DNA from: an uncultured Candidatus Saccharibacteria bacterium
GTDB lineage: Bacteria; Patescibacteriota; Saccharimonadia; Saccharimonadales; CAZVRA01
Assembly (NCBI GenBank): GCA_964630055.1
Contig: CAZVRA010000002.1
Coordinates: 207,021 to 271,020 of the forward strand
Direction: 5' to 3'
Length of the DNA stretch: 64,000 nt
Part shown: in pieces, positions 3,301 through 26,838 of the stretch
Numbering within the stretch: position 1 is the stretch's first letter
How the letters are laid out: each line of letters starts with the position of its first letter
Made by a program: the position numbers and the translations under genes
The notes under the pieces: model-generated
Told to the model about the DNA's origin: nothing
What the model saw: only the letters and a program-made list of their open reading frames with translations
Database searches by the model: none

Positions 3301-3371
3301 AATGGATTCTCCCTAGATTGTTGATTGATTTGGCCAGCCGATCGACCATTTAGCGGCCTTGCCAAAGTACC

Positions 3372-3400
3372 AAAAAAACCTCTGTTGTTACCAGAGGTTT
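3372..3400 (-). terminator. terminator-like hairpin inside the rplJ 5' leader (candidate attenuator)
   Basis: The minus strand reads AAACCTCTG-gtaacaa-CAGAGGTTT running into a 7-T run. It lies about 75 nt upstream of the rplJ ATG and downstream of the predicted promoter. Confidence 0.45.
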
Positions 3401-3514
3401 GTGAGTTGTGCAAAAAATTAAAATAAAAGCTTGCACCTAGGCGACATAATTAAGGTTTGGCTTGGCATTGATTTTGCCGAGCTATTCCCGTCGCTGTCTT
3501 TGGTAACTGGGGTA

Positions 3515-3544
3515 ATTATACTACAGCCAACCGTTCAAGGTCAA
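3515..3544 (-). promoter_or_regulatory. candidate sigma-70 promoter for rplJ-rplL
   Basis: Minus strand TTGACC (3544..3539), 18 nt spacer, TATAAT (3520..3515). This leaves a leader of about 210 nt. Confidence 0.4.
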
Positions 3545-20262: not shown

Positions 20263-20279
20263 CTGTAAAAGTCGTATCC

Positions 20280-20521
20280 TGGAGCATTTCTACCGAAACG
20301 CTAGAACCCATTTTAGCAAAAACCAACAGATAAGAACAGATGTGAAGTGGAAGAAAGAGGACAACCTGCGAAACCAGCCACGCCGTTTGCCAGCCAAAGG
20401 CTGACCCGCCCCGCCAGCCCTGGATTTTGATTGTTTTTGGATTTCCCCCGCCGAATTTCTTTTTTTGCATTGGAAAAATCCATGTCTGTCGGGTCGGCTG
20501 CCCACAAGGGCAGAAACGGCT
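20280..20521 (-). repeat. 242 bp inverted repeat, left copy (X-L)
   Basis: I checked it base by base. It is the perfect reverse complement of 23190..23431. Confidence 0.97.
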
Positions 20522-20533
20522 GCGGTATTCAAG

Positions 20534-22018
20534 CTAGACTGGCAACTCATTCATTAACTTTATAAACTGTGGTTCGACTTTAGGTTTAATCATCATCAAC
20601 ATTGTGGATATACCATTGTCTAGCCCAATATCTTTGATGTACTGCTGGCGTAAATGTGCTAGATGACTGCTTGTAAATTCTTCACCTGATTGAAATCCAA
20701 AATAATTCTTAAACTGCGCCATTCGCGCAAGTAATTCATCAGGGTTGCGTAGGTAATTTGGCTGATTCACAGAATTTTCATCAACTAATTGGTTGTAGAT
20801 ATCCCAGTCAAAGCCACTCCTTACTTCTGTAACAGCCGAGCCCTTGACGTCAACCATGCCGTGATATGCTTCGTGTCCAGCGATAATATCTTTTTGTCTA
20901 TCTGTAAGCTGATTCCCAGCTTGATTGGCGGCATCAGAATAGATTGTTCCAGTTTTTCCTATCTTACCGTGTCCTAGACTACCTTGCGATTTGCCACTAA
21001 CATCTTGTGCTTTGCCATAGCCCACAGCAGAGTAAACTCTTGTGAGATTATCATCAAACTGATCTAATTGAGCCTGGTAGTGCGTCTGAAAGTTTTCAGG
21101 CTTGTCTAGCACCGACCGTGTAACCCCTGGCTCAAGTGAGTTAATGTGGTTAGAAATGAATCTGGTGAATTTTTCTCGAAAATCCGGTGACTGCATACGC
21201 TGGAGCTGCAAATTAAACCAGTTTCCTTGGTAGTTTGCTGTTTCGGCGACAGAAATCTGTTCAGTATCAAGATTCTGTGCGCTTGCTAAAATTTCCTGCG
21301 CTCTAGCTTCTATAGTTTGGCGGACAGTTGCTTCCATTGTTTCAGTAATCGGCATACCATAAACAGCGTGTGCAAAACCTTCCGAAAATGCTTCGTGGTC
21401 TTTGTTGTCGCTATGCCACTCATCGGCTTCTCGTCCATATCTTGTAGGGCTTTCACTAGCAGCGACACGATGATATGCCTCGCCAGTTTTTGTTTGTCCA
21501 TCTAGTACATGTCCGATTTCGTGTACCAGCGTATATTCTAACGCACCGCCAGATCGTTGCTCGTCAGGAAAACCAGCAAGTTCGTCGGCACTGTACGAGC
21601 CGCTTACTTGTTTCATTTCTGCAACGCTCAAAAGCATTTTTCTCCCGTTAAGCAGCACCTGATTTTCTTCTGCTACTGCTTTTGCGCCGCCCCCTGCAAC
21701 ATCCTCGCCGATTTTTATATGTAGTCCTGTAAAAATGTCAGTGGCTCTGCCGCCTGTAAAGCGGTCAATGGCTTCTAACGCGCCAGTCGTAGACGCAATA
21801 AGTTGTTGTTCTTCTTCTGGTGAATAGCCTGGCATTACCTCAACCAAAACCCTACACTCGCCAGCGCTAGACATACACATCAAAGCCTCACCGTTTTCGT
21901 GATGAACTTCAGAAAAATGTTCTGGGTGTTCTGGTCTGTTGAATGTCTCGGTGTAATTTCCGTCGTCTGTTGTATCGTGCGCTCTAAGCGCTGGATTATC
22001 CGTCAGCTGCTCACTCAT
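20534..22018 (-). CDS. hypothetical protein with two HExxH metallopeptidase-like motifs
   Basis: Start chosen at ATG 22018 (MSEQLTDNP), an 8 nt overlap with the upstream gene. LVHEIGHVLDG is at nt 21509..21523 and is followed by HEAFSEGFAHAV. A second AGHEAYHGM is at nt 20861..20875. No signal peptide is obvious. Confidence 0.7.
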   Translation of the reverse strand: MSEQLTDNPALRAHDTTDDGNYTETFNRPEHPEHFSEVHHENGEALMCMSSAGECRVLVEVMPGYSPEEEQQLIASTTGALEAIDRFTGGRATDIFTGLHIKIGEDVAGGGAKAVAEENQVLLNGRKMLLSVAEMKQVSGSYSADELAGFPDEQRSGGALEYTLVHEIGHVLDGQTKTGEAYHRVAASESPTRYGREADEWHSDNKDHEAFSEGFAHAVYGMPITETMEATVRQTIEARAQEILASAQNLDTEQISVAETANYQGNWFNLQLQRMQSPDFREKFTRFISNHINSLEPGVTRSVLDKPENFQTHYQAQLDQFDDNLTRVYSAVGYGKAQDVSGKSQGSLGHGKIGKTGTIYSDAANQAGNQLTDRQKDIIAGHEAYHGMVDVKGSAVTEVRSGFDWDIYNQLVDENSVNQPNYLRNPDELLARMAQFKNYFGFQSGEEFTSSHLAHLRQQYIKDIGLDNGISTMLMMIKPKVEPQFIKLMNELPV

Positions 22019-23147
22019 TATCAATCCCCAGAGACCGTCCCGATATAACACGAGCGTTTTTAACAAAGTCAATCACAGACGCCTTAGCTTGTTCGGTCGT
22101 CCCCACATATCTGCCAGGAGTAGTATTGGCATAAGCATCAAAAACGATAATTGTACTCTCGATTTTAGCAATAAATGGTGCTACGCCAATTACTTTTTGA
22201 TGATCCTTGTTAGGTTGTAAAATAGTTCGGCCATCAGACTGATAAACTACATTGCAAGGCAACAATGTCGGGGTGTCATATTGCTCTTTTTTCTTTTCGT
22301 ATTTTATTTTTCCCCAGACACCCGTATATTCACGTAGTTTCTCGTAATCACAGCTGCCAGATAAAATGAAAAGGTTCTCAATTACATCGTCATACTTTGC
22401 TTCTGCGAATCTGATAGTTCCCTGAGGTGTTTCGAATTTTGCATGGATGTACATAATACTTGAGTTGTCGTTCGGGTCATCTTGACGTGTATCAATACCG
22501 ACTTTATCAAAATAAGAGGTGTCTGGTGCATAAAGGTCAAAATCAAAACCTTTCTCTAAAGTTGAATTTTCTGGCACTGTAGCTGAGTTTGAGCTGCCAG
22601 TACTCTGGTTATTTGCAGTATAATTTCCTGAAAGCGAAAGCGCTAGTACTAACACGAATCCAGTACAAAGTTTGATTAAGATATTGTTGTTACTTGAAAC
22701 AAGCACATATGAACAGAAATATACGATTGCACAAATAATTATCAATACGGGTGTAAAAATGTAAGTAGTTATGCCTGCCAAAGCTGTCGCAATTGAACGC
22801 CACGCTATCATTACCAGTGCAGTTCCTAATATTGCCTGTACGAATGGTCGACGATAGTTCAATTGCTTCAGCAGCAGTCCACTTGCAACAGTAATCACTA
22901 CAGGCGTCACCACGGTGAGAATCATTCCGATTAAGTTGCTAAATGCAAGCGCCAATGCCAGGCCGGATAATCCATTGCTGAACGCATCCTCCGCTGAGCC
23001 AAATATGACTTTTACAACAACAAGGTTTAGCAAAAACATAGCAGGTATCTGTAAACCACCAATAATTAAGGGAGGATAAACGGAAGACTCCAAGTTGTAG
23101 TCGGTTATATTATTGTATTTTGGATTATAAAAGTTTGTATTTTTCAT
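22011..23147 (-). CDS. multi-pass membrane protein with ~190 aa soluble C-terminal domain, unknown function
   Basis: 378 aa. About 5-6 hydrophobic helices in the first ~190 aa, then an Asn/Ser-rich linker and a globular-looking tail. Lies in an AT-rich region. Confidence 0.7.
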   Translation of the reverse strand: MKNTNFYNPKYNNITDYNLESSVYPPLIIGGLQIPAMFLLNLVVVKVIFGSAEDAFSNGLSGLALALAFSNLIGMILTVVTPVVITVASGLLLKQLNYRRPFVQAILGTALVMIAWRSIATALAGITTYIFTPVLIIICAIVYFCSYVLVSSNNNILIKLCTGFVLVLALSLSGNYTANNQSTGSSNSATVPENSTLEKGFDFDLYAPDTSYFDKVGIDTRQDDPNDNSSIMYIHAKFETPQGTIRFAEAKYDDVIENLFILSGSCDYEKLREYTGVWGKIKYEKKKEQYDTPTLLPCNVVYQSDGRTILQPNKDHQKVIGVAPFIAKIESTIIVFDAYANTTPGRYVGTTEQAKASVIDFVKNARVISGRSLGIDNE

Positions 23148-23189
23148 CTTTTGTCCTAGTCATATCATATCATGTTTCATCGAAGCTTT

Positions 23190-23431
23190 AGCCGTTTCTG
23201 CCCTTGTGGGCAGCCGACCCGACAGACATGGATTTTTCCAATGCAAAAAAAGAAATTCGGCGGGGGAAATCCAAAAACAATCAAAATCCAGGGCTGGCGG
23301 GGCGGGTCAGCCTTTGGCTGGCAAACGGCGTGGCTGGTTTCGCAGGTTGTCCTCTTTCTTCCACTTCACATCTGTTCTTATCTGTTGGTTTTTGCTAAAA
23401 TGGGTTCTAGCGTTTCGGTAGAAATGCTCCA
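23190..23431 (+). repeat. 242 bp inverted repeat, right copy (X-R)
   Basis: Perfect reverse complement of 20280..20521. Ends in GCTCCA (23426..23431). Confidence 0.97.
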
Positions 23432-23562
23432 AAACCGGACTTAAATTGGAATTGTCGCCCTCTTGGGCGATTTTTTCTTTGGCGGTGCGAAGCACCAGCC
23501 AAAGATTTTCTTGGGGGGAATGAGATTTTGGGTCGCTGGAAGCGACCGCAATTTTGGTTTTG
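23426..23562 (-). repeat. 137 bp inverted repeat B' (inverted copy of the recombinase 3' end plus tRNA-proximal junction)
   Basis: Reverse complement of 25108..25244 with a single mismatch (23529 vs 25141, synonymous in the recombinase frame). Confidence 0.95.
23455..23476 (+). terminator. intrinsic terminator-like hairpin inside B' (plus-strand sense)
   Basis: TCGCCC-tctt-GGGCGA followed by TTTTTT. It is the mirror of the tRNA-Thr terminator in repeat B. Confidence 0.5.
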
Positions 23563-23582
23563 CCCGCCGTAGGCGGTTTTTT
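23563..23582 (+). terminator. short GC hairpin plus T-run just outside B'
   Basis: CCGCC-gta-GGCGG followed by TTTTTT. Only the plus strand has the U-tract after the stem. Confidence 0.4.
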
Positions 23583-23590
23583 GTTATAAT
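23582..23590 (+). promoter_or_regulatory. extended -10 promoter candidate for the recombinase gene
   Basis: TGtTATAAT, about 118 nt upstream of the recombinase ATG. Confidence 0.4.
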
Positions 23591-23597
23591 CGTAAGT

Positions 23598-23670
23598 GGA
23601 TACAATCAGCTCAAGAGAGGTCTTTTTTAATGGCCGTCCCAGACAAACAAGATTTCTCTTGATTGTATCC
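23598..23670. promoter_or_regulatory. imperfect inverted repeat in the recombinase 5' region
   Basis: GGATACAATCAgctcAAGAGA (23598..) pairs with TCTCTTGATTGTATCC (23655..23670). The arms are 11+6 bp and are separated by about 37 nt. Confidence 0.4.
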
Positions 23671-23707
23671 AACTGGGGCGGTCATTAAAATTATGGGGGT
23701 AATTTCT

Positions 23708-25303
23708 ATGAATCAAAATCGCTACATTTTGTATGCTCGTAAGAGTACGGATGTTGAGGACAAGCAAGTTTTGAGCATTGAAGCACAGTTAGCAGAACTT
23801 CGGAACTACGCCAGAGATAACGGTCTAGTCGTGGTGGACACTGTTATTGAGAAAAAGTCCGCCAAAACTCCAGGCCGTCCGAAGTTCGGCGATGTCCTAC
23901 AACGCATACAAAATGGCGAAGCCACCGCAATTTTGGCGTGGCACCCCGATAGACTTGCCAGAAATAGTATAGACGGCGGACAAATTATCTATTTACTAGA
24001 CCAAAAGCATTTAGCCGACTTGAAGTTTCAGACATTTTGGTTTGAGAACACATCACAGGGCAAGTTTATGTTGTCTATCGCTTTTGGTCAGAGCAAATAC
24101 TATGTAGATAATTTGTCAGAGAACACCAAGCGTGGGCTTCGCGCGAAAATTCGGCGTGGCGAGTTTCCTGGTATTGCTCCGTTTGGCTATTACAACAACA
24201 CCAAGAGTAAGACGGTGCATATAGATAAACGCCAAGCCAAATTAGTTGAAGCGATTTTTGTTTTATATTCTTTGGGGCAAAGCACTTTTCAAGATATAGC
24301 CGACTATTTGTTTGAGCGTGGCATAAAAACCAGCGGCGGCAAGCCATACAGCAAAGACAAGGTAAAGTATATCTTGAAAAACCCGTTTTATTACGGTCAT
24401 TTCATTTACGGCGGCGAGATTTACGCGGGCAAACATACGCCCATTATTAGCAAGAAACTTTTTGATAAAGTGCGGACCGTCATAAAACAGCGAAGCCACC
24501 CGACTAAAGGCTTGATAGAGCCACAAGCCTACTGCGGACTACTCCGTTGCAACTGCGGTATGATGATAACTGCCGAAAACAAAACGAAACGGCAGAAAAA
24601 TGGCAATACACACCACTATATCTATTACAGGTGTAGCCGTAAGAATAGAACTGTGAAATGTACTGAACCTGCCGTTCGTTCTGAACTATTAGATCAGCAG
24701 TTATCTGATTTGTTGGCTGGCTTCGCCATGCCCCAAGAATATGCGGACAAAATGCGTGAGATGGCTAGTGCTGACGAACTCACTGAAAAAGCCAAGATAG
24801 ACGGCAAAATTGACAGTTTGCGGACAGACATCACGCATTTGTCCGAGAAATTACAAAGACTGTTGGACGGCTTCCTTGATGGCGTTTTGGAGCGTGATAT
24901 TTACACCCAAGAAAAAGCCAAAATTATGAGCCACAAGAAAACCATTGAAGAACAAATGAGCGATTTGGCATTAGGCACTTTGGAATGGGTTGAACCGCTG
25001 AATAATTGGCTAGAAAAAGCCGTTTCTATCTGTAAAATCGCTCAATCTACTGACCAAAACGCCAAAAAGTCGTTGCTACTGGAAATCTTTGGGTTGAACC
25101 TGTTTCTCAAAACCAAAATTGCGGTCGCTTCCAGCGACCCTAAATCTCATTCCCCCCAAGAAAATCTTTGGCTGGTGCTTCGCACCGCCAAAGAAAAAAT
25201 CGCCCAAGAGGGCGACAATTCCAATTTAAGTCCGGTTTTGGAGCCACGAGCCGGGATTGAACCGGCGACCTCATGCTTACCATGCATGCGCTCTGCCAAC
25301 TGA
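23708..25303 (+). CDS. large serine recombinase
   Basis: MNQNRYILYARKSTDVEDKQVLSIEAQ (catalytic Ser motif). Also a resolvase core, a recombinase domain, a Cys-rich zinc ribbon (CGLLRCNCG...YYRCSRKNRTVKC) and a coiled-coil. The ORF has no stop until 25301..25303, so it reads through repeat B and antisense into the tRNA-Thr gene. Confidence 0.9.
   Translation: MNQNRYILYARKSTDVEDKQVLSIEAQLAELRNYARDNGLVVVDTVIEKKSAKTPGRPKFGDVLQRIQNGEATAILAWHPDRLARNSIDGGQIIYLLDQKHLADLKFQTFWFENTSQGKFMLSIAFGQSKYYVDNLSENTKRGLRAKIRRGEFPGIAPFGYYNNTKSKTVHIDKRQAKLVEAIFVLYSLGQSTFQDIADYLFERGIKTSGGKPYSKDKVKYILKNPFYYGHFIYGGEIYAGKHTPIISKKLFDKVRTVIKQRSHPTKGLIEPQAYCGLLRCNCGMMITAENKTKRQKNGNTHHYIYYRCSRKNRTVKCTEPAVRSELLDQQLSDLLAGFAMPQEYADKMREMASADELTEKAKIDGKIDSLRTDITHLSEKLQRLLDGFLDGVLERDIYTQEKAKIMSHKKTIEEQMSDLALGTLEWVEPLNNWLEKAVSICKIAQSTDQNAKKSLLLEIFGLNLFLKTKIAVASSDPKSHSPQENLWLVLRTAKEKIAQEGDNSNLSPVLEPRAGIEPATSCLPCMRSAN
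25108..25244 (+). repeat. 137 bp inverted repeat B (recombinase 3' coding end up to the tRNA 3' terminus)
   Basis: See B'. Its last 6 nt (TGGAGC) are the complement of the tRNA-Thr 3' end GCTCCA. Confidence 0.95.
25194..25215 (-). terminator. intrinsic terminator 24 nt downstream of tRNA-Thr(GGT)
   Basis: The minus strand reads TCGCCC-tctt-GGGCGA followed by TTTTTT. It is encoded antisense within recombinase codons (EKIAQEGD). Confidence 0.6.
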
Positions 25304-25314
25304 GCTATCGCGGC
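25239..25314 (-). tRNA. tRNA-Thr (GGT)
   Basis: GCCGCGA/TCGTGGC acceptor, GCTC..GAGC D-arm, CATGC/GCATG anticodon stem with loop ATGGTAA, GCCGG-TTCAATC-CCGGC T-arm, encoded TCCA. Confidence 0.92.
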
Positions 25315-25912
25315 ATTTCTGGACTTCGTTGACAATTATGTCTCTAAATTTTTTATTATGAAAGTAAACGGTAAGCACGCCATTTTTATTTTTGTGACGA
25401 TACGTTCCAACTTTCGTGGATATTGTAACAGTTATTTTGTAAAATTGCGAACTTTCTGCGCCAACTTTTGTCATCCAAAATTTTTTTGCAGATTCTGCAT
25501 CAACATCCGAAAATATTTGCAAGCCAAAACGAAGATCAGCAAAGGAAACATCATAAATTTCAATTAAGAACTTAATAAACACCTTTATTAGATCTGGATC
25601 TGTATTTCCTAGTCTGACCGAGTACTTATTGGCCTTATTACCTTCTCCCCAGTATAGTCCTATGCCAATGCCAAAAAGCAAGGCATTAGCCTCAAATATT
25701 TTAGGATTAGGATTAAATGGGTCTCCATGCGGGTTGTTCTTGCAATATAGGGCTTCACTCCTTGAGCGTCTTGGTATACCATACCTATCCATCCAGTATT
25801 GGACTTTATGAATCGAGCAGTTTAATGTGCTGGCAACCTCTTTCATAGAAAGTCTCTGCACAGTATACAATTCTTGAAGCTTCTTCTTCTCGATCTTAGT
25901 CATTTTGGGCAT
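25277..25912 (-). CDS. HTH + LAGLIDADG-like homing endonuclease family protein (putative)
   Basis: N-terminal HTH-like LSMKEVASTLNCSIHKVQYWMDRYGI. The single LLFGIGIGLYWGEGNK block resembles a LAGLIDADG motif. The last 38 nt overlap the 5' half of tRNA-Thr, and the stop TAA lies in the anticodon loop. Confidence 0.55.
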   Translation of the reverse strand: MPKMTKIEKKKLQELYTVQRLSMKEVASTLNCSIHKVQYWMDRYGIPRRSRSEALYCKNNPHGDPFNPNPKIFEANALLFGIGIGLYWGEGNKANKYSVRLGNTDPDLIKVFIKFLIEIYDVSFADLRFGLQIFSDVDAESAKKFWMTKVGAESSQFYKITVTISTKVGTYRHKNKNGVLTVYFHNKKFRDIIVNEVQKCRDSSVGRAHAW

Positions 25913-25958
25913 AGAGCGATTCTAACATACAAATCGATAGAACCTTGTAAACAGGTGA

Positions 25959-26267
25959 TTATAGTCCATTACGGTCCTGGTAGGACTCTAATATTCTGGC
26001 TGACCTTATTTCTGCTTGCCTGGCCTCGCTGTAGTCACTGATATTTATTTTGGTAATAATTCCGAGTAGTGCGGCGCTACCGAGGCTTATCGCTGCAGCT
26101 TGGTAATGTTCGGTGGCTACATTGATTACGGTCAGCGCTGCTTCTGCGGCTACACCAACAGATGTAAATACCAGCGCTCTGCCACATGCTTTACGCATTT
26201 TTTCATCAGCAACATTGTCTAACTGCCGTTGATGATATTCGTTAGAAAAATCGGAGGCTTCTGTCAT
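25959..26267 (-). CDS. small membrane protein, hypothetical
   Basis: 102 aa with two hydrophobic helices. AT-rich context between tRNA genes. Confidence 0.45.
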   Translation of the reverse strand: MTEASDFSNEYHQRQLDNVADEKMRKACGRALVFTSVGVAAEAALTVINVATEHYQAAAISLGSAALLGIITKINISDYSEARQAEIRSARILESYQDRNGL

Positions 26268-26357
26268 GTTACCGTCCCTGCGCTGTTTACTTAGTATTCG
26301 GTTTATTCGTATTATACATCTGTTGTGCTATATAATGATGACTTTAGGAAAATTATG

Positions 26358-26705
26358 TCAAGGTTTGACGTTGACCAGTCCGTAGATTGGTAGCAAGATT
26401 ATTTCAGAAATAATAAAAAATATCAGTGGCGATAAAACTAATGGGGTTATAAAAAATACTAATAACTGATTCCGCTTAGTTTGCTCTTTGATGGTGGTTT
26501 TGAAATAAGATAAAGCTGCAACCCCAGATAAAATAAGACCGATACCAATGCTAATAATTACCAAGGGCTGGTTGAATCCTATTGCTTGATCAGTATGCTG
26601 GATTTGAAGCTGTAGGACTTTACTGATTATCATTGCCTGACCAAAAAAGGCAATAATTGATACCAAAAATACGTAAAAATAAGGTGATTTTACATTTGGT
26701 TTCAT
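26358..26705 (-). CDS. small multi-pass membrane protein, hypothetical
   Basis: 115 aa with 3 hydrophobic helices. Confidence 0.5.
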   Translation of the reverse strand: MKPNVKSPYFYVFLVSIIAFFGQAMIISKVLQLQIQHTDQAIGFNQPLVIISIGIGLILSGVAALSYFKTTIKEQTKRNQLLVFFITPLVLSPLIFFIISEIILLPIYGLVNVKP

Positions 26706-26838
26706 CGTTCTTACTGTGACCTAGCCTTAGAATTATTAGTAATTGCCCAACGAACTTTGTACATTGACTTATTGCTTGCAGGACATTTCATATTATAACT
26801 ATATATAAAAGTTCTGACGTTCACAACGCGTCTATGTG

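Follow-up and report, generated by a model that had tools for sequence, protein, structure and literature searches.

Patescibacteria have tiny genomes in which few mobile elements have been recognised. In the streamlined genomes of Prochlorococcus variable cargo is moved by Tycheposons, small tRNA-associated elements which mostly use tyrosine recombinases, are specific for one tRNA each, have att sites of about 40 nt and in many cases carry replication modules. The serine integrases of phages recognise attP through a motif that is shifted outward by about 5 bp relative to attB. For Mx8 and BPs it is documented that attP can lie within a gene so that integration alters the C-terminus of the protein, and the altered Mx8 integrase is still active with changed properties (PMC6070905, PMC4557955). 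The element described here belongs to a family that resembles the Tycheposons in size, tRNA association and variable cargo but falls outside them, with a serine recombinase, a core of 3-10 bp, several target tRNAs and an inverted attP that Tycheposons lack.

The locus was analysed within a window of 64,000 nt (contig CAZVRA010000002.1 positions 207,021-271,020) and all coordinates given here are window positions. The integrated element occupies 20280-25244 (about 5 kb with its tRNA target, 20280-25314), its cargo arc has a GC content of 0.41-0.46 versus 0.47-0.52 in the flanks, and no second family member was found elsewhere in the 64-kb window. Its features are as follows.

20280..20521, plus strand: X-L, left copy of a perfect 242-bp inverted repeat, the right arm of attP
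20280..20285, plus strand: core of site 1 (attL), TGGAGC, where the host flank meets arm X
20285-20401 (stop 20402-20404), plus strand: detached last recombinase codons in X-L, the coding tail
20522..23189, minus strand: cargo arc with two ORFs, both on the minus strand
20534-22072, minus strand: cargo ORF of 512 aa with a HEIGH motif
22011-23147, minus strand: cargo ORF of 378 aa, hydrophobic
23190..23431, minus strand: X-R, inverted copy of X, 242 bp
23307..23562, minus strand: spare intact recombinase 3' end comprising B' (about 45 codons), the core (Leu-Glu) and a 39-codon tail, stop 23307-23309
23426..23431, minus strand: core of site 2 (plus-strand letters GCTCCA), at the midpoint of P', the attP copy that is intact and inverted
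23426..23562, plus strand: B', inverted copy of B, 137 bp
23563..23707, plus strand: recombinase promoter and leader, a putative extended -10 followed by a conserved structured leader
23708..25303, plus strand: ORF of the large serine recombinase in its integrated form, 531 aa, with Resolvase, Recombinase and Zn_ribbon_recom domains
25108..25244, plus strand: B, 137-bp repeat, left arm of attP and approximately the last 45 native recombinase codons
25239..25244, plus strand: core of site 3 (attR), TGGAGC, complement of the tRNA 3' end GCTCCA
25239..25314, minus strand: tRNA-Thr(GGT), the integration target, ending in ...GCTCCA and intact after insertion

The repeats are as the original prediction had described them, pair X being free of mismatches on recheck, pair B differing at a single base (23529, T vs A) and the same hexamer lying at all outer repeat edges (20280, 23426 and 25239). 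Inner boundaries are sharp in both pairs. A perfect 242-bp inverted repeat together with a 137-bp repeat is beyond chance, and the two nested pairs are both explained by one duplication of a B-core-X unit of about 380 bp. The reverse complement of site 2 consists of the left arm of site 3, the core and the right arm of site 1 (30 nt compared on each side), and the earlier reading of the three junctions as attL, attR and an inverted intact attP is exact here and recurs in about 30 independent elements. The four att sites are thus related by simple arm exchange round a short core, the empty attB being seen in two relatives (L201, L203). The predicted 6-bp identity across the three sites stands within the window, whereas the minimal core shared across the family is only 3-5 nt, G-A/T-G, equivalent to acceptor position 72, the discriminator and C74, and may bracket the crossover point.

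That the block from X to B is an insertion follows from the empty '...TGGAGC-tRNA-Thr(GGT)' site in the same two relatives, which are syntenic and supply the empty site expected from the original prediction, and from three loci (L001, L047 and L056) in which an element separates two tRNA genes otherwise adjacent. The lower GC of the inserted DNA is in line with this. On the left the host flank at site 1 lies 17 nt past the mazG stop codon. The idea that B is native tRNA-downstream DNA and that X and the cargo are host DNA was ruled out, as elements at unrelated positions share conserved X and B sequences (85% for arm X) and relatives have empty sites. Target tRNAs across the family cover 14 amino-acid specificities, and close relatives (82-86% identity) are found at Thr-GGT, Thr-CGT and Lys-TTT. 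The aligned junctions show the family to insert at the last nucleotides of tRNA genes whatever the tRNA identity, with a predicted crossover at about position 72, the discriminator and C74. The target tRNA is kept intact and arm B gives it a predicted replacement, an intrinsic terminator formed by the complement of B (25216-25199, minus strand). X-L contains a mimic of the tRNA T-arm, GCTAGAACC. In 72 of 72 elements the GAAC of this mimic is displaced outward in X by 4 bp relative to its place in the tRNA, so that attP has the recognition motif at a greater distance from the centre than attB does.

The recombinase is of the serine type, as had been proposed, with a resolvase catalytic domain (PF00239, E 4.8e-24) that includes the YxRxS(T) serine motif, a Recombinase domain (PF07508, 7.2e-20) and a zinc ribbon (PF13408, 1.7e-07). 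Within YARKSTDVEDKQ the residues R, K, T and D do not vary among 31 homologs, and S is retained in 90% or more of them. The zinc-ribbon residues C276, C281, C283, C309 and C318 are invariant. A coiled coil, seen in the AlphaFold model only (helices 345-392 and 398-425, pLDDT 86-93), completes the predicted domain set of a large serine recombinase (LSR). Among characterised proteins it is most closely related to CcrB, XisF, SPbeta SprA and A118 Int, of which SprA and A118 Int are also PDB matches. P0001 is 100% identical to the window recombinase, and exact-sequence look-ups of the recombinase and of MazG matched no record. We read TGtTATAAT at 23582-23590, which has equivalents in other elements, as a putative extended -10. 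Terminator-like hairpins reading towards the recombinase are present in B' (23454-23471) and straddling its inner edge (23560-23576), and three such hairpins lie between the core and the recombinase promoter.

The crossover core lies within the recombinase ORF and the complete gene is present solely in the attP configuration. In the window the native sequence runs up to the core (25244) and the final 19 codons are antisense of the tRNA-Thr; integrated and excised forms are therefore predicted to encode different C-termini. In 94 of 97 elements the reading frame continues without a stop across B and the core, B encoding about 45 codons, the core Leu-Val or Leu-Glu and the start of X a conserved tail, typically of 14 aa (FYxxARTYF) and of 39 aa in the clade of the window. 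For 55 of 66 elements the stop codon of the tail is located at +12 to +14, and the variation in the tail codons for Arg (CGA46/AGA18/CGC2), Thr (ACC51/ACT14/ACA1) and Phe (TTT52/TTC14) is synonymous only. In the AlphaFold model the tail forms part of a terminal helix (residues 511-527, pLDDT about 80). As judged from sequence, attP (B-core-X) is the 3' end of the recombinase transcription unit, and the rest of X-L is presumably a 3' UTR or terminator. X was also considered as a protein-coding gene and as a known RNA gene. Once the roughly 14-39 codons of the tail have ended, no reading frame is kept, the same motifs being read in different frames, and X is non-coding from there on; it has no Rfam hit and its fold is not significant (z = -1.2).

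P' is a second full copy of about 380 bp, inverted between the cargo and the recombinase promoter. In the isomer of the window its spare 3' end is unattached to the gene body, the ORF at 23307..23672 (minus strand) ending ...SPVLEHFYRNARTHF... Synonymous changes make up 84 of 208 differences between B and B' versus 24% expected, which is compatible with constraint on B alone. Because the attP core lies within the recombinase ORF the two attP copies are not functionally equivalent, and the two equivalent attachment copies first envisaged for the circle have to be given up, as only one of them completes the gene.

The cargo ORFs had no Pfam, NCBIfam or PADLOC match, defence annotation included. 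Cargo is unrelated between elements and the recombinase is the sole conserved gene. No replication gene, partition gene or second conserved gene, as a possible recombination directionality factor (RDF), was found in the elements, and no replication function is present that would suit the 2-micron-like layout proposed originally. Cargo is on the minus strand in about 23 elements, on the plus strand in 9 and mixed in 5. Homologous cargo was not caught in opposite orientations, 9 related pairs having the same orientation; one cargo pair at 23% identity is opposite in orientation.

Homologous recombinases with the same repeat logic, the existence of which the original prediction had left for comparison with related genomes, were found in about 120 independent elements across Patescibacteria, and matches to the family exceed 586 in genomes and 589 in metagenomes, each figure being a lower bound. 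Nested X and B repeats occur in every element with sufficient flank, and the canonical site 2, with an X copy directly upstream of the recombinase, in 120. Arms are usually 99-100% identical within an element and at least 15% different between elements. Integrated copies with visible flanks (97 elements with an abutting tRNA, 120 with the inverted X copy directly upstream) represent a single isomer in which the recombinase reads into the tRNA and its tail is severed. No contig was found with the flipped integrated state, in which a plus-strand tRNA would adjoin B' and the recombinase would read away; the sole candidate (L157) proved to be a canonical element that runs the other way. Flipping of either arc, with as many as four isomers, had been predicted; only the cargo arc is seen in both orientations, and the recombinase arc has one orientation throughout these 97 and 120 copies. 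The full-length configuration is found in 8 of 120 database homologs (about 7%) and in contigs L119, L198-L200 and L205, with upstream context visible in a minority. Arm sequences diverge by 6-7% within L139 and within L205, so that for these two full-length contigs a mis-join through identical repeats is excluded. A literature search found no description of this family, in keeping with the earlier statement that no such architecture was known, and it is apparently an undescribed and widespread family of small gene-carrying elements of Patescibacteria.

The window holds an integrated cargo element mobilised by its LSR, and we think it probable, with some reserve, that loss of the tail controls the recombinase and that the inverted P' allows the gene to be rebuilt. 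When the element integrates through the attP copy that adjoins the gene, tail and terminator are cut off and the gene then reads antisense into the tRNA. By analogy with Mx8 IntP/IntX the loss of the tail would switch the recombinase off or reprogram it and would lock the element in, while P' would act as a stored intact 3' end plus attP. The complete gene would be restored in place if the recombinase arc inverted between B' and B, whether through homologous recombination of the host along the 100-150-bp arms or through action of the recombinase on sites 2 and 3. As standard LSR rules do not allow attP x attR recombination, flipping driven by the recombinase would be unorthodox. The rebuilt gene could then direct excision at sites 1 and 3 to give a circle with two inverted attPs that may re-insert, stable insertions being only those that sever the gene again, and the cargo would be flipped relative to the recombinase with each cycle. 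The more specific reading, a self-severing recombinase whose terminal helix is cut off and whose spare inverted 3' end restores the gene by inversion as a built-in reset, is one we offer tentatively; such a reset would mean that directionality is set by DNA topology and not by a directionality factor. It counts against the proposal that no flipped integrated contig and no homologous cargo in both orientations were seen, that the synonymous excess between B and B' is compatible with constraint on B alone, and that the altered Mx8 integrase is still active.

Other explanations for the inverted attP were weighed. On a 2-micron-like circle the two attPs would be equivalent and both arcs would flip freely through four isomers, possibly with copy-number amplification, and the quadripartite inverted-repeat layout, the cargo seen in both orientations and the existence of circle-like contigs are all in line with this. 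We regard it as unlikely, given that all integrated copies with visible flanks have the recombinase arc the same way round, that nothing but the recombinase is conserved and genes for replication or partition are lacking, that just one attP completes the gene, and that arm divergence in decayed elements indicates no continuous homogenisation while integrated. P' could also be a cis-acting site at which bound recombinase regulates the promoter or aids the attL-attR excision synapse, replacing a directionality factor. Its constant position directly upstream of the recombinase promoter and leader would suit such a role, as would the lack of a second conserved gene as RDF candidate and the fact that the related LSRs Ccr and TnpX function without a separate RDF. 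This too is doubtful, since about 50 bp would suffice for a binding site whereas identity extends over 250-500 bp and takes in about 45 codons, the tail and the stop, the three terminator-like hairpins separate the core from the promoter, and we know of no three-site LSR synapse of this kind.

A single-stranded intermediate, modelled on CTX phage attP(+) and integron attC, would have one strand circularise and P pair with P' as a double-stranded attP stem. The long arms are near-perfectly complementary, a strand-specific intermediate would explain the one isomer among copies with visible flanks, and Patescibacteria depend on DNA uptake that delivers single strands. Serine recombinases make concerted double-strand breaks, however, so that a hairpin stem recombined with attB should leave hairpin-capped chromosome ends; no gene for an HUH protein, Rep or a relaxase is present, and a severed gene is the simpler account of the single isomer, which leaves this route very improbable. 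Inverted repeats beyond the assembler k-mer are error-prone and many related contigs end at B', which might point to the internal X-R/B' block as an assembly or amplification chimera, the artefact that the original prediction had named as fatal to it. The chance of this is negligible, as about 120 elements in independent assemblies share the layout across samples, assemblers, phyla, tRNAs and cargos, and the arm sequences are element-specific and co-vary between both copies; at the family level these comparisons already refute it. Phage origin was considered separately, and the best viral-contig relative is 40% identical and the element has 5 kb without phage genes.

The detectable copies of the family number well over a thousand, genomes often contain several of them, and highly diverse cargo is moved between tRNA genes, which makes the family a plausible main route of gene flux in Patescibacteria. 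Three of its features have not been described together for serine recombinases, these being a generic target at the tRNA 3' end and T-arm, an attP in the recombinase's own coding sequence and an obligatory inverted spare attP. If the switch through tail loss is correct, the direction of recombination is controlled without a factor. If the reset is also correct, serine recombinases would be shown to have a control principle that is new for them, and the family would be a major system of gene shuttling in Patescibacteria, so far unrecognised, whose target, the end of any tRNA gene, is near-universal. The enzymes could become tools for DNA insertion at tRNA genes, including in hard-to-engineer Patescibacteria.

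Among known systems, SCC elements with CcrB/CcrC share the domain architecture of the family, CcrB being the best NCBIfam match with a full-length alignment, and are likewise small cargo cassettes at the 3' end of a conserved gene with no separate directionality factor evident. The CcrB score of 140 bits against a cut-off of 900 nevertheless places the family outside SCC, which targets rlmH and not any tRNA 3' end, and the attP within the recombinase ORF, the inverted second attP that is always present and the Patescibacteria hosts also set it apart. The attP x attB arm logic and short core are shared with the phage serine integrases A118, SPbeta SprA, phiC31 and Bxb1, but the family is not phage-borne or a prophage, has no RDF and is promiscuous in its target. 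Two long inverted repeats, two unique arcs and recombination sites in the repeats are common to 2-micron and plastid-type circles; in 2-micron, however, a tyrosine recombinase, FLP, flips a plasmid that replicates, whereas the family uses a serine recombinase, integrates, has no replicon and is seen with its recombinase arc in a single orientation, and so is not of the 2-micron type. Hin segments similarly hold recombinase and promoter inside an inverted-repeat-bounded segment whose outer ends are the crossover sites, but Hin is a small serine invertase which needs an enhancer and Fis, acts at 26-bp sites, is not mobile and does not target tRNAs. A comparable arrangement is known from Mx8 intP/intX and BPs, where attP lies in the ORF and the new C-terminus made by integration is a genetic switch (PMC6070905, PMC4557955); these are tyrosine integrases with a single attP and no inverted spare of the severed end, whereas the family described here keeps one.

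The island is bounded by two nested inverted-repeat pairs, X and B, present with the extents and the single mismatch given in the original prediction, and the inner edges of both are abrupt. Its claimed tRNA link also holds, the last six bases of tRNA-Thr(GGT) being the complement of the TGGAGC crossover hexamer (the core) that recurs at site 1 (attL), site 2 and site 3 (attR).

Features of the island in the window
20280-20521 and 23190-23431: X and its internal inverted copy X', 242 bp, perfect
23426-23562 and 25108-25244: internal inverted copy B' and B, 137 bp, one mismatch at 23529
25239-25314, minus strand: tRNA-Thr(GGT)
23708-25303: ORF of a large serine recombinase (LSR)
20534-22072, minus strand: cargo ORF, 512 aa, with a HEIGH (zincin-like) motif
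22011-23147: cargo ORF, 378 aa, hydrophobic, multi-pass

Comparison of the arms bore out the reading of site 2 as an inverted intact attP (P'): for 30 nt to either side of the core, its reverse complement joins the left arm of site 3 through TGGAGC to the right arm of site 1. Automatic extraction yielded all three junctions for approximately 30 elements, and in these site 2 is likewise the B arm of site 3, the core and the X arm of site 1. Cores range from 3 to 10 nt across the family, e.g. T(T)TGGTG, TGGAG(C) and TTGGCT, and shrink to GTG or GAG at tRNA genes without an encoded CCA, which puts the crossover near position 72, the discriminator and C74. In the X arm a short hairpin comes first and GCTCGAACCTATTTT next, and the GAAC of this arm lies 4 bp farther from the core than the tRNA T-arm GAAC in 72 of 72 elements, the '+9' cases in this count being a T-loop GAAT 5 nt upstream. 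In LSR sites, as seen in A118 integrase-DNA structures, a motif is displaced outward on attP relative to attB, and the outward GAAC shift follows this pattern. The host flank left of the core (window 20269-20279, aaaAGTCGTATCC) is similar to attP left arms in related elements (aaaAGTCGTATTC, AAGTTCGTT; L001 9725-9737 was among those compared) as well as to the flank ggAAGTTCGTTT of the empty site in the relative L201 (10902-10913), which suggests a left half-site motif common to attB and attP at equal spacing. Left flanks are unrelated in many other elements.

Searching for homologous recombinases with the same repeat logic was productive, and the first three homologous loci share the layout, at other tRNAs. 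Its recurrence across independent elements rules out an assembly artefact.

First homologous loci
L001: at tRNA-Thr(CGT)
L003: at tRNA-Lys(TTT)
L002: at tRNA-Thr(GGT), contig ending in X'

Relatives number at least 580 in species-representative genomes and at least 580 in metagenomes, and among the matches listed almost all are from Patescibacteria, including Saccharibacteria, Parcubacteria groups, Moranbacteria, Magasanikbacteria, Falkowbacteria and Doudnabacteria; the viral contigs searched contained no close relative (identity at most 40%). By self-alignment, a B-type repeat of 90-175 bp flanks the recombinase in most loci, and in the 49 elements with enough upstream sequence an X-type repeat of 100-414 bp, usually 99-100% identical, abuts B' and flanks 0.9-8 kb of cargo, while an X-arm profile identifies 120 elements in which an inverted X immediately precedes the recombinase. 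Both repeats are homologous between elements (column identity 85% for X and 81% for B among the closest) and form hairpins with compensatory changes, which makes them DNA of the element and not of the host. Several distinct family elements can share a contig or genome in either chromosomal orientation (L011 and L014, L008 and L044, L010 and L025, L012 and L017, L041, L157, L163), sometimes at consecutive tRNAs of one cluster; such co-residents belong to different subfamilies and differ in B length.

In 97 elements the outermost 4-6 nt of B also belong to an opposite-strand tRNA gene, with targets comprising Thr, Lys, Gly, Leu, Gln, Arg, Phe, Ile, Glu, Val, Cys, Asp, Tyr and His, and recombinases 82-86% identical to that of the window occupy three different tRNAs. 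In L001, L047 and L056 a distance of 3-12 nt separates the left junction from the 5' end of the following tRNA in the cluster, so that removal of X...B would restore an ordinary tRNA pair. The island-free tRNA-Thr(GGT) site was found in the relatives L201 and L203, which share the synteny GT5-GH57-GH15 ... TPR-holB-rluD with the window; L201 reads ...ggaagttcgttt-TGGAGC-cgtcatcg (tRNA-Thr GGT) with the native terminator next, and L203 reads ...atgtacg-TGGAGC. The gap from tRNA-Thr(GGT) to tRNA-Tyr is only 2-10 nt in these relatives, and in the window approximately 1.5 kb (25315-26838) separates the 5' end of the former from the 3' end of the latter. This stretch is a second insertion at the 3' end of a tRNA gene; neither a recombinase nor X/B-like sequence was found in it, and it has three ORFs.

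ORFs of the 25315-26838 insert
25277-25912, minus strand: weak HTH match
25959-26267, minus strand: ORF
26358-26705, minus strand: ORF

L002 has a comparable 1.3-kb insert. At the right junctions of L012, L017, L034, L168 and L180 there are truncated tRNA 3' fragments or non-tRNA sequence, which may be secondary or pseudo-target sites; L017 and L034 have CGGA(A/G)(T/C)TACAGAA(C/T)(C/T)TAC in common after the core.

The recombinase has Resolvase, Recombinase and Zn_ribbon_recom domains with conserved catalytic motif and zinc cysteines, and its nearest characterised relatives, CcrB (140 bits against a cut-off of 900), XisF and CcrC/CcrA, are distant, as are the nearest in the PDB, SPbeta SprA and the A118 integrase. 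In 94 of 97 elements its ORF reads through the whole of B and the core, the first stop lying within the tRNA gene or past it. In the attP context kept at site 2 (B-core-X) it runs on into a conserved tail, L-(V/E)-x-(L/F/I)-Y-x-x-A-R-T-(Y/H)-F-x-x-N-x-stop, and 55 of 66 elements have their stop 12-14 codons after the (L/F/I)-Y motif begins. Among the elements chosen by this motif (66 of 71 have it) the invariant Arg (CGA 46, AGA 18, CGC 2), Thr (ACC 51, ACT 14, ACA 1) and Phe (TTT 52, TTC 14) codons vary only synonymously, so that the tail is under protein-level selection, and in an AlphaFold model of the full-length homolog P0093 residues 511-527 form a terminal helix (pLDDT ~80) beside helix 489-503. 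The clade of the window has lost the usual stop and its tail is 39 aa long (…LEHFYRNARTHFSKNQQ…).

Copies of the 39-aa tail in the window
20285-20401: detached copy, at attL
23562-23307, minus strand: intact copy, with B'

Past the tail X is non-coding, without a family match in Rfam, and contains hairpins followed by T-runs that we read as the 3' UTR and terminator of the recombinase gene. The complement of B has an intrinsic terminator directly 3' of the tRNA; in B' this terminator points towards the recombinase promoter. Since B-core-X spans gene tail and terminator, the repeated unit is the 3' end of the recombinase transcription unit, a single inverted duplication of which upstream of the promoter gives rise to both nested repeats. 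Synonymous changes are over-represented where B and B' differ (84/208 against 24% expected), a pattern that confirms B as coding and fits constraint on B alone. Both repeat pairs are 99-100% identical within most elements, although even close relatives differ from each other by 10-15% in X. In other elements the arms have diverged (83-93%), so integrated copies are not continuously homogenised.

The recombinase leader (window 23590-23707) is strongly structured (RNA MFE -40 kcal/mol, z = -4.3) and has no match in Rfam. In alignment A6, of the window and the equivalent leader in 32 other elements, an 11-bp helix (AATRGCCGTCYYG...CRRGGCGGYYATT) just 5' of the RBS is conserved throughout the family: 9 of its 11 pairs show compensatory double changes and broken pairs are almost absent. 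We regard the leader as a candidate new cis-regulatory leader. The window also has, at 3363-3521 on the minus strand, an ordinary ribosomal protein L10 leader (RF00557) unrelated to the element.

GC content is 0.41-0.46 in the island versus 0.47-0.52 in its flanks, and neither cargo ORF matched Pfam, NCBIfam or PADLOC. Cargo is hardly ever common to two elements; relative to the recombinase it lies on the opposite strand in approximately 23 elements, while 9 elements have both on one strand and 5 have a mixture. The nine related cargo pairs each have the same orientation, so flipping of one cargo was not caught directly.

The original prediction was that either arc can flip, giving up to four isomers. 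Two equivalent attPs on a double-stranded circle should allow integration via either copy and hence two orientations of the recombinase arc, but in every integrated copy with visible flanks the recombinase reads into the tRNA, its tail severed by integration. L157, considered as a flipped exception, is a canonical element in reverse orientation. Among the best 120 database homologs an attP-type tail ends 8, all on 1.8-3.1 kb contigs, and antisense-tRNA sequence ends the other 112. The order recombinase, B, core, X, cargo is seen in L119, L198, L199, L200 and L205, L119 ending on the left inside B' and on the right inside X', as a quadripartite circle would assemble, and L139 is circle-like, with X-type sequence on either side of the recombinase. 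In L205 and L139 mis-joining through identical repeats is excluded, since their arms are 93% and 94% identical, respectively. The full-length contigs, whose upstream context lies mostly beyond the contig, are excised circles or alternative integrated isomers.

Two loci have further arrangements. L049 (3200-8260) reads X, about 150 nt, X', core, B', recombinase, B*, core, X*, cargo, B, core, tRNA-Ile, with the recombinase in full-length configuration and the cargo downstream, as if a one-attP cargo-only circle had inserted at attR, and may be an intermediate of cargo acquisition. At a non-tRNA site, L016 (5256-11524) has two X-cargo-X' modules in series upstream of a single recombinase, the first flanked by ~37 extra nt of inverted B-like sequence.

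We are highly confident of the identity of the element, its target, the junction logic, the gene-spanning attP, the inverted spare, the single integrated isomer and the full-length configuration. Beyond this we infer, tentatively and with somewhat less than even confidence, a specific switch. Integration would sever the terminal helix and terminator and run the gene head-on into the tRNA gene, inactivating or reprogramming the enzyme and stabilising the insertion; the altered Mx8 integrase (IntP/IntX) is still active with changed properties, and BPs gp33 is likewise cited as precedent (PMC6070905, PMC4557955). P' would store the intact 3' end and attP, and if the recombinase arc inverted between B' and B, the gene would be complete again, promoter and leader moving along, with the tRNA still terminated by the other B copy. 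The restored enzyme could then excise the element via sites 1 and 3 and re-insert it, insertion via the non-severing attP leaving the enzyme active and so being transient, and severing insertion persisting. Such a switch would account for the single isomer, for the universal P', for a repeat that covers the entire gene end where a 50-bp site would be enough for binding, and, as every cycle would flip cargo relative to recombinase, for both cargo orientations. Taken together, description and switch make an explanation that we consider reasonably probable.

Full-text literature on serine recombinases, tRNAs and inverted repeats in Patescibacteria, Saccharibacteria or CPR yielded no description of the family, and a tRNA-intron survey of Patescibacteria does not mention recombinases. 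Membership tests place it outside Ccr, phage integrases, tycheposons, FLP plasmids and Hin-type invertases. The family works like an LSR integrative cassette, nearest to SCC/Ccr elements and LSR transposons, to which it adds a repeat geometry like that of 2-micron and, apparently, an attP-within-gene switch resembling those of Mx8 and BPs.
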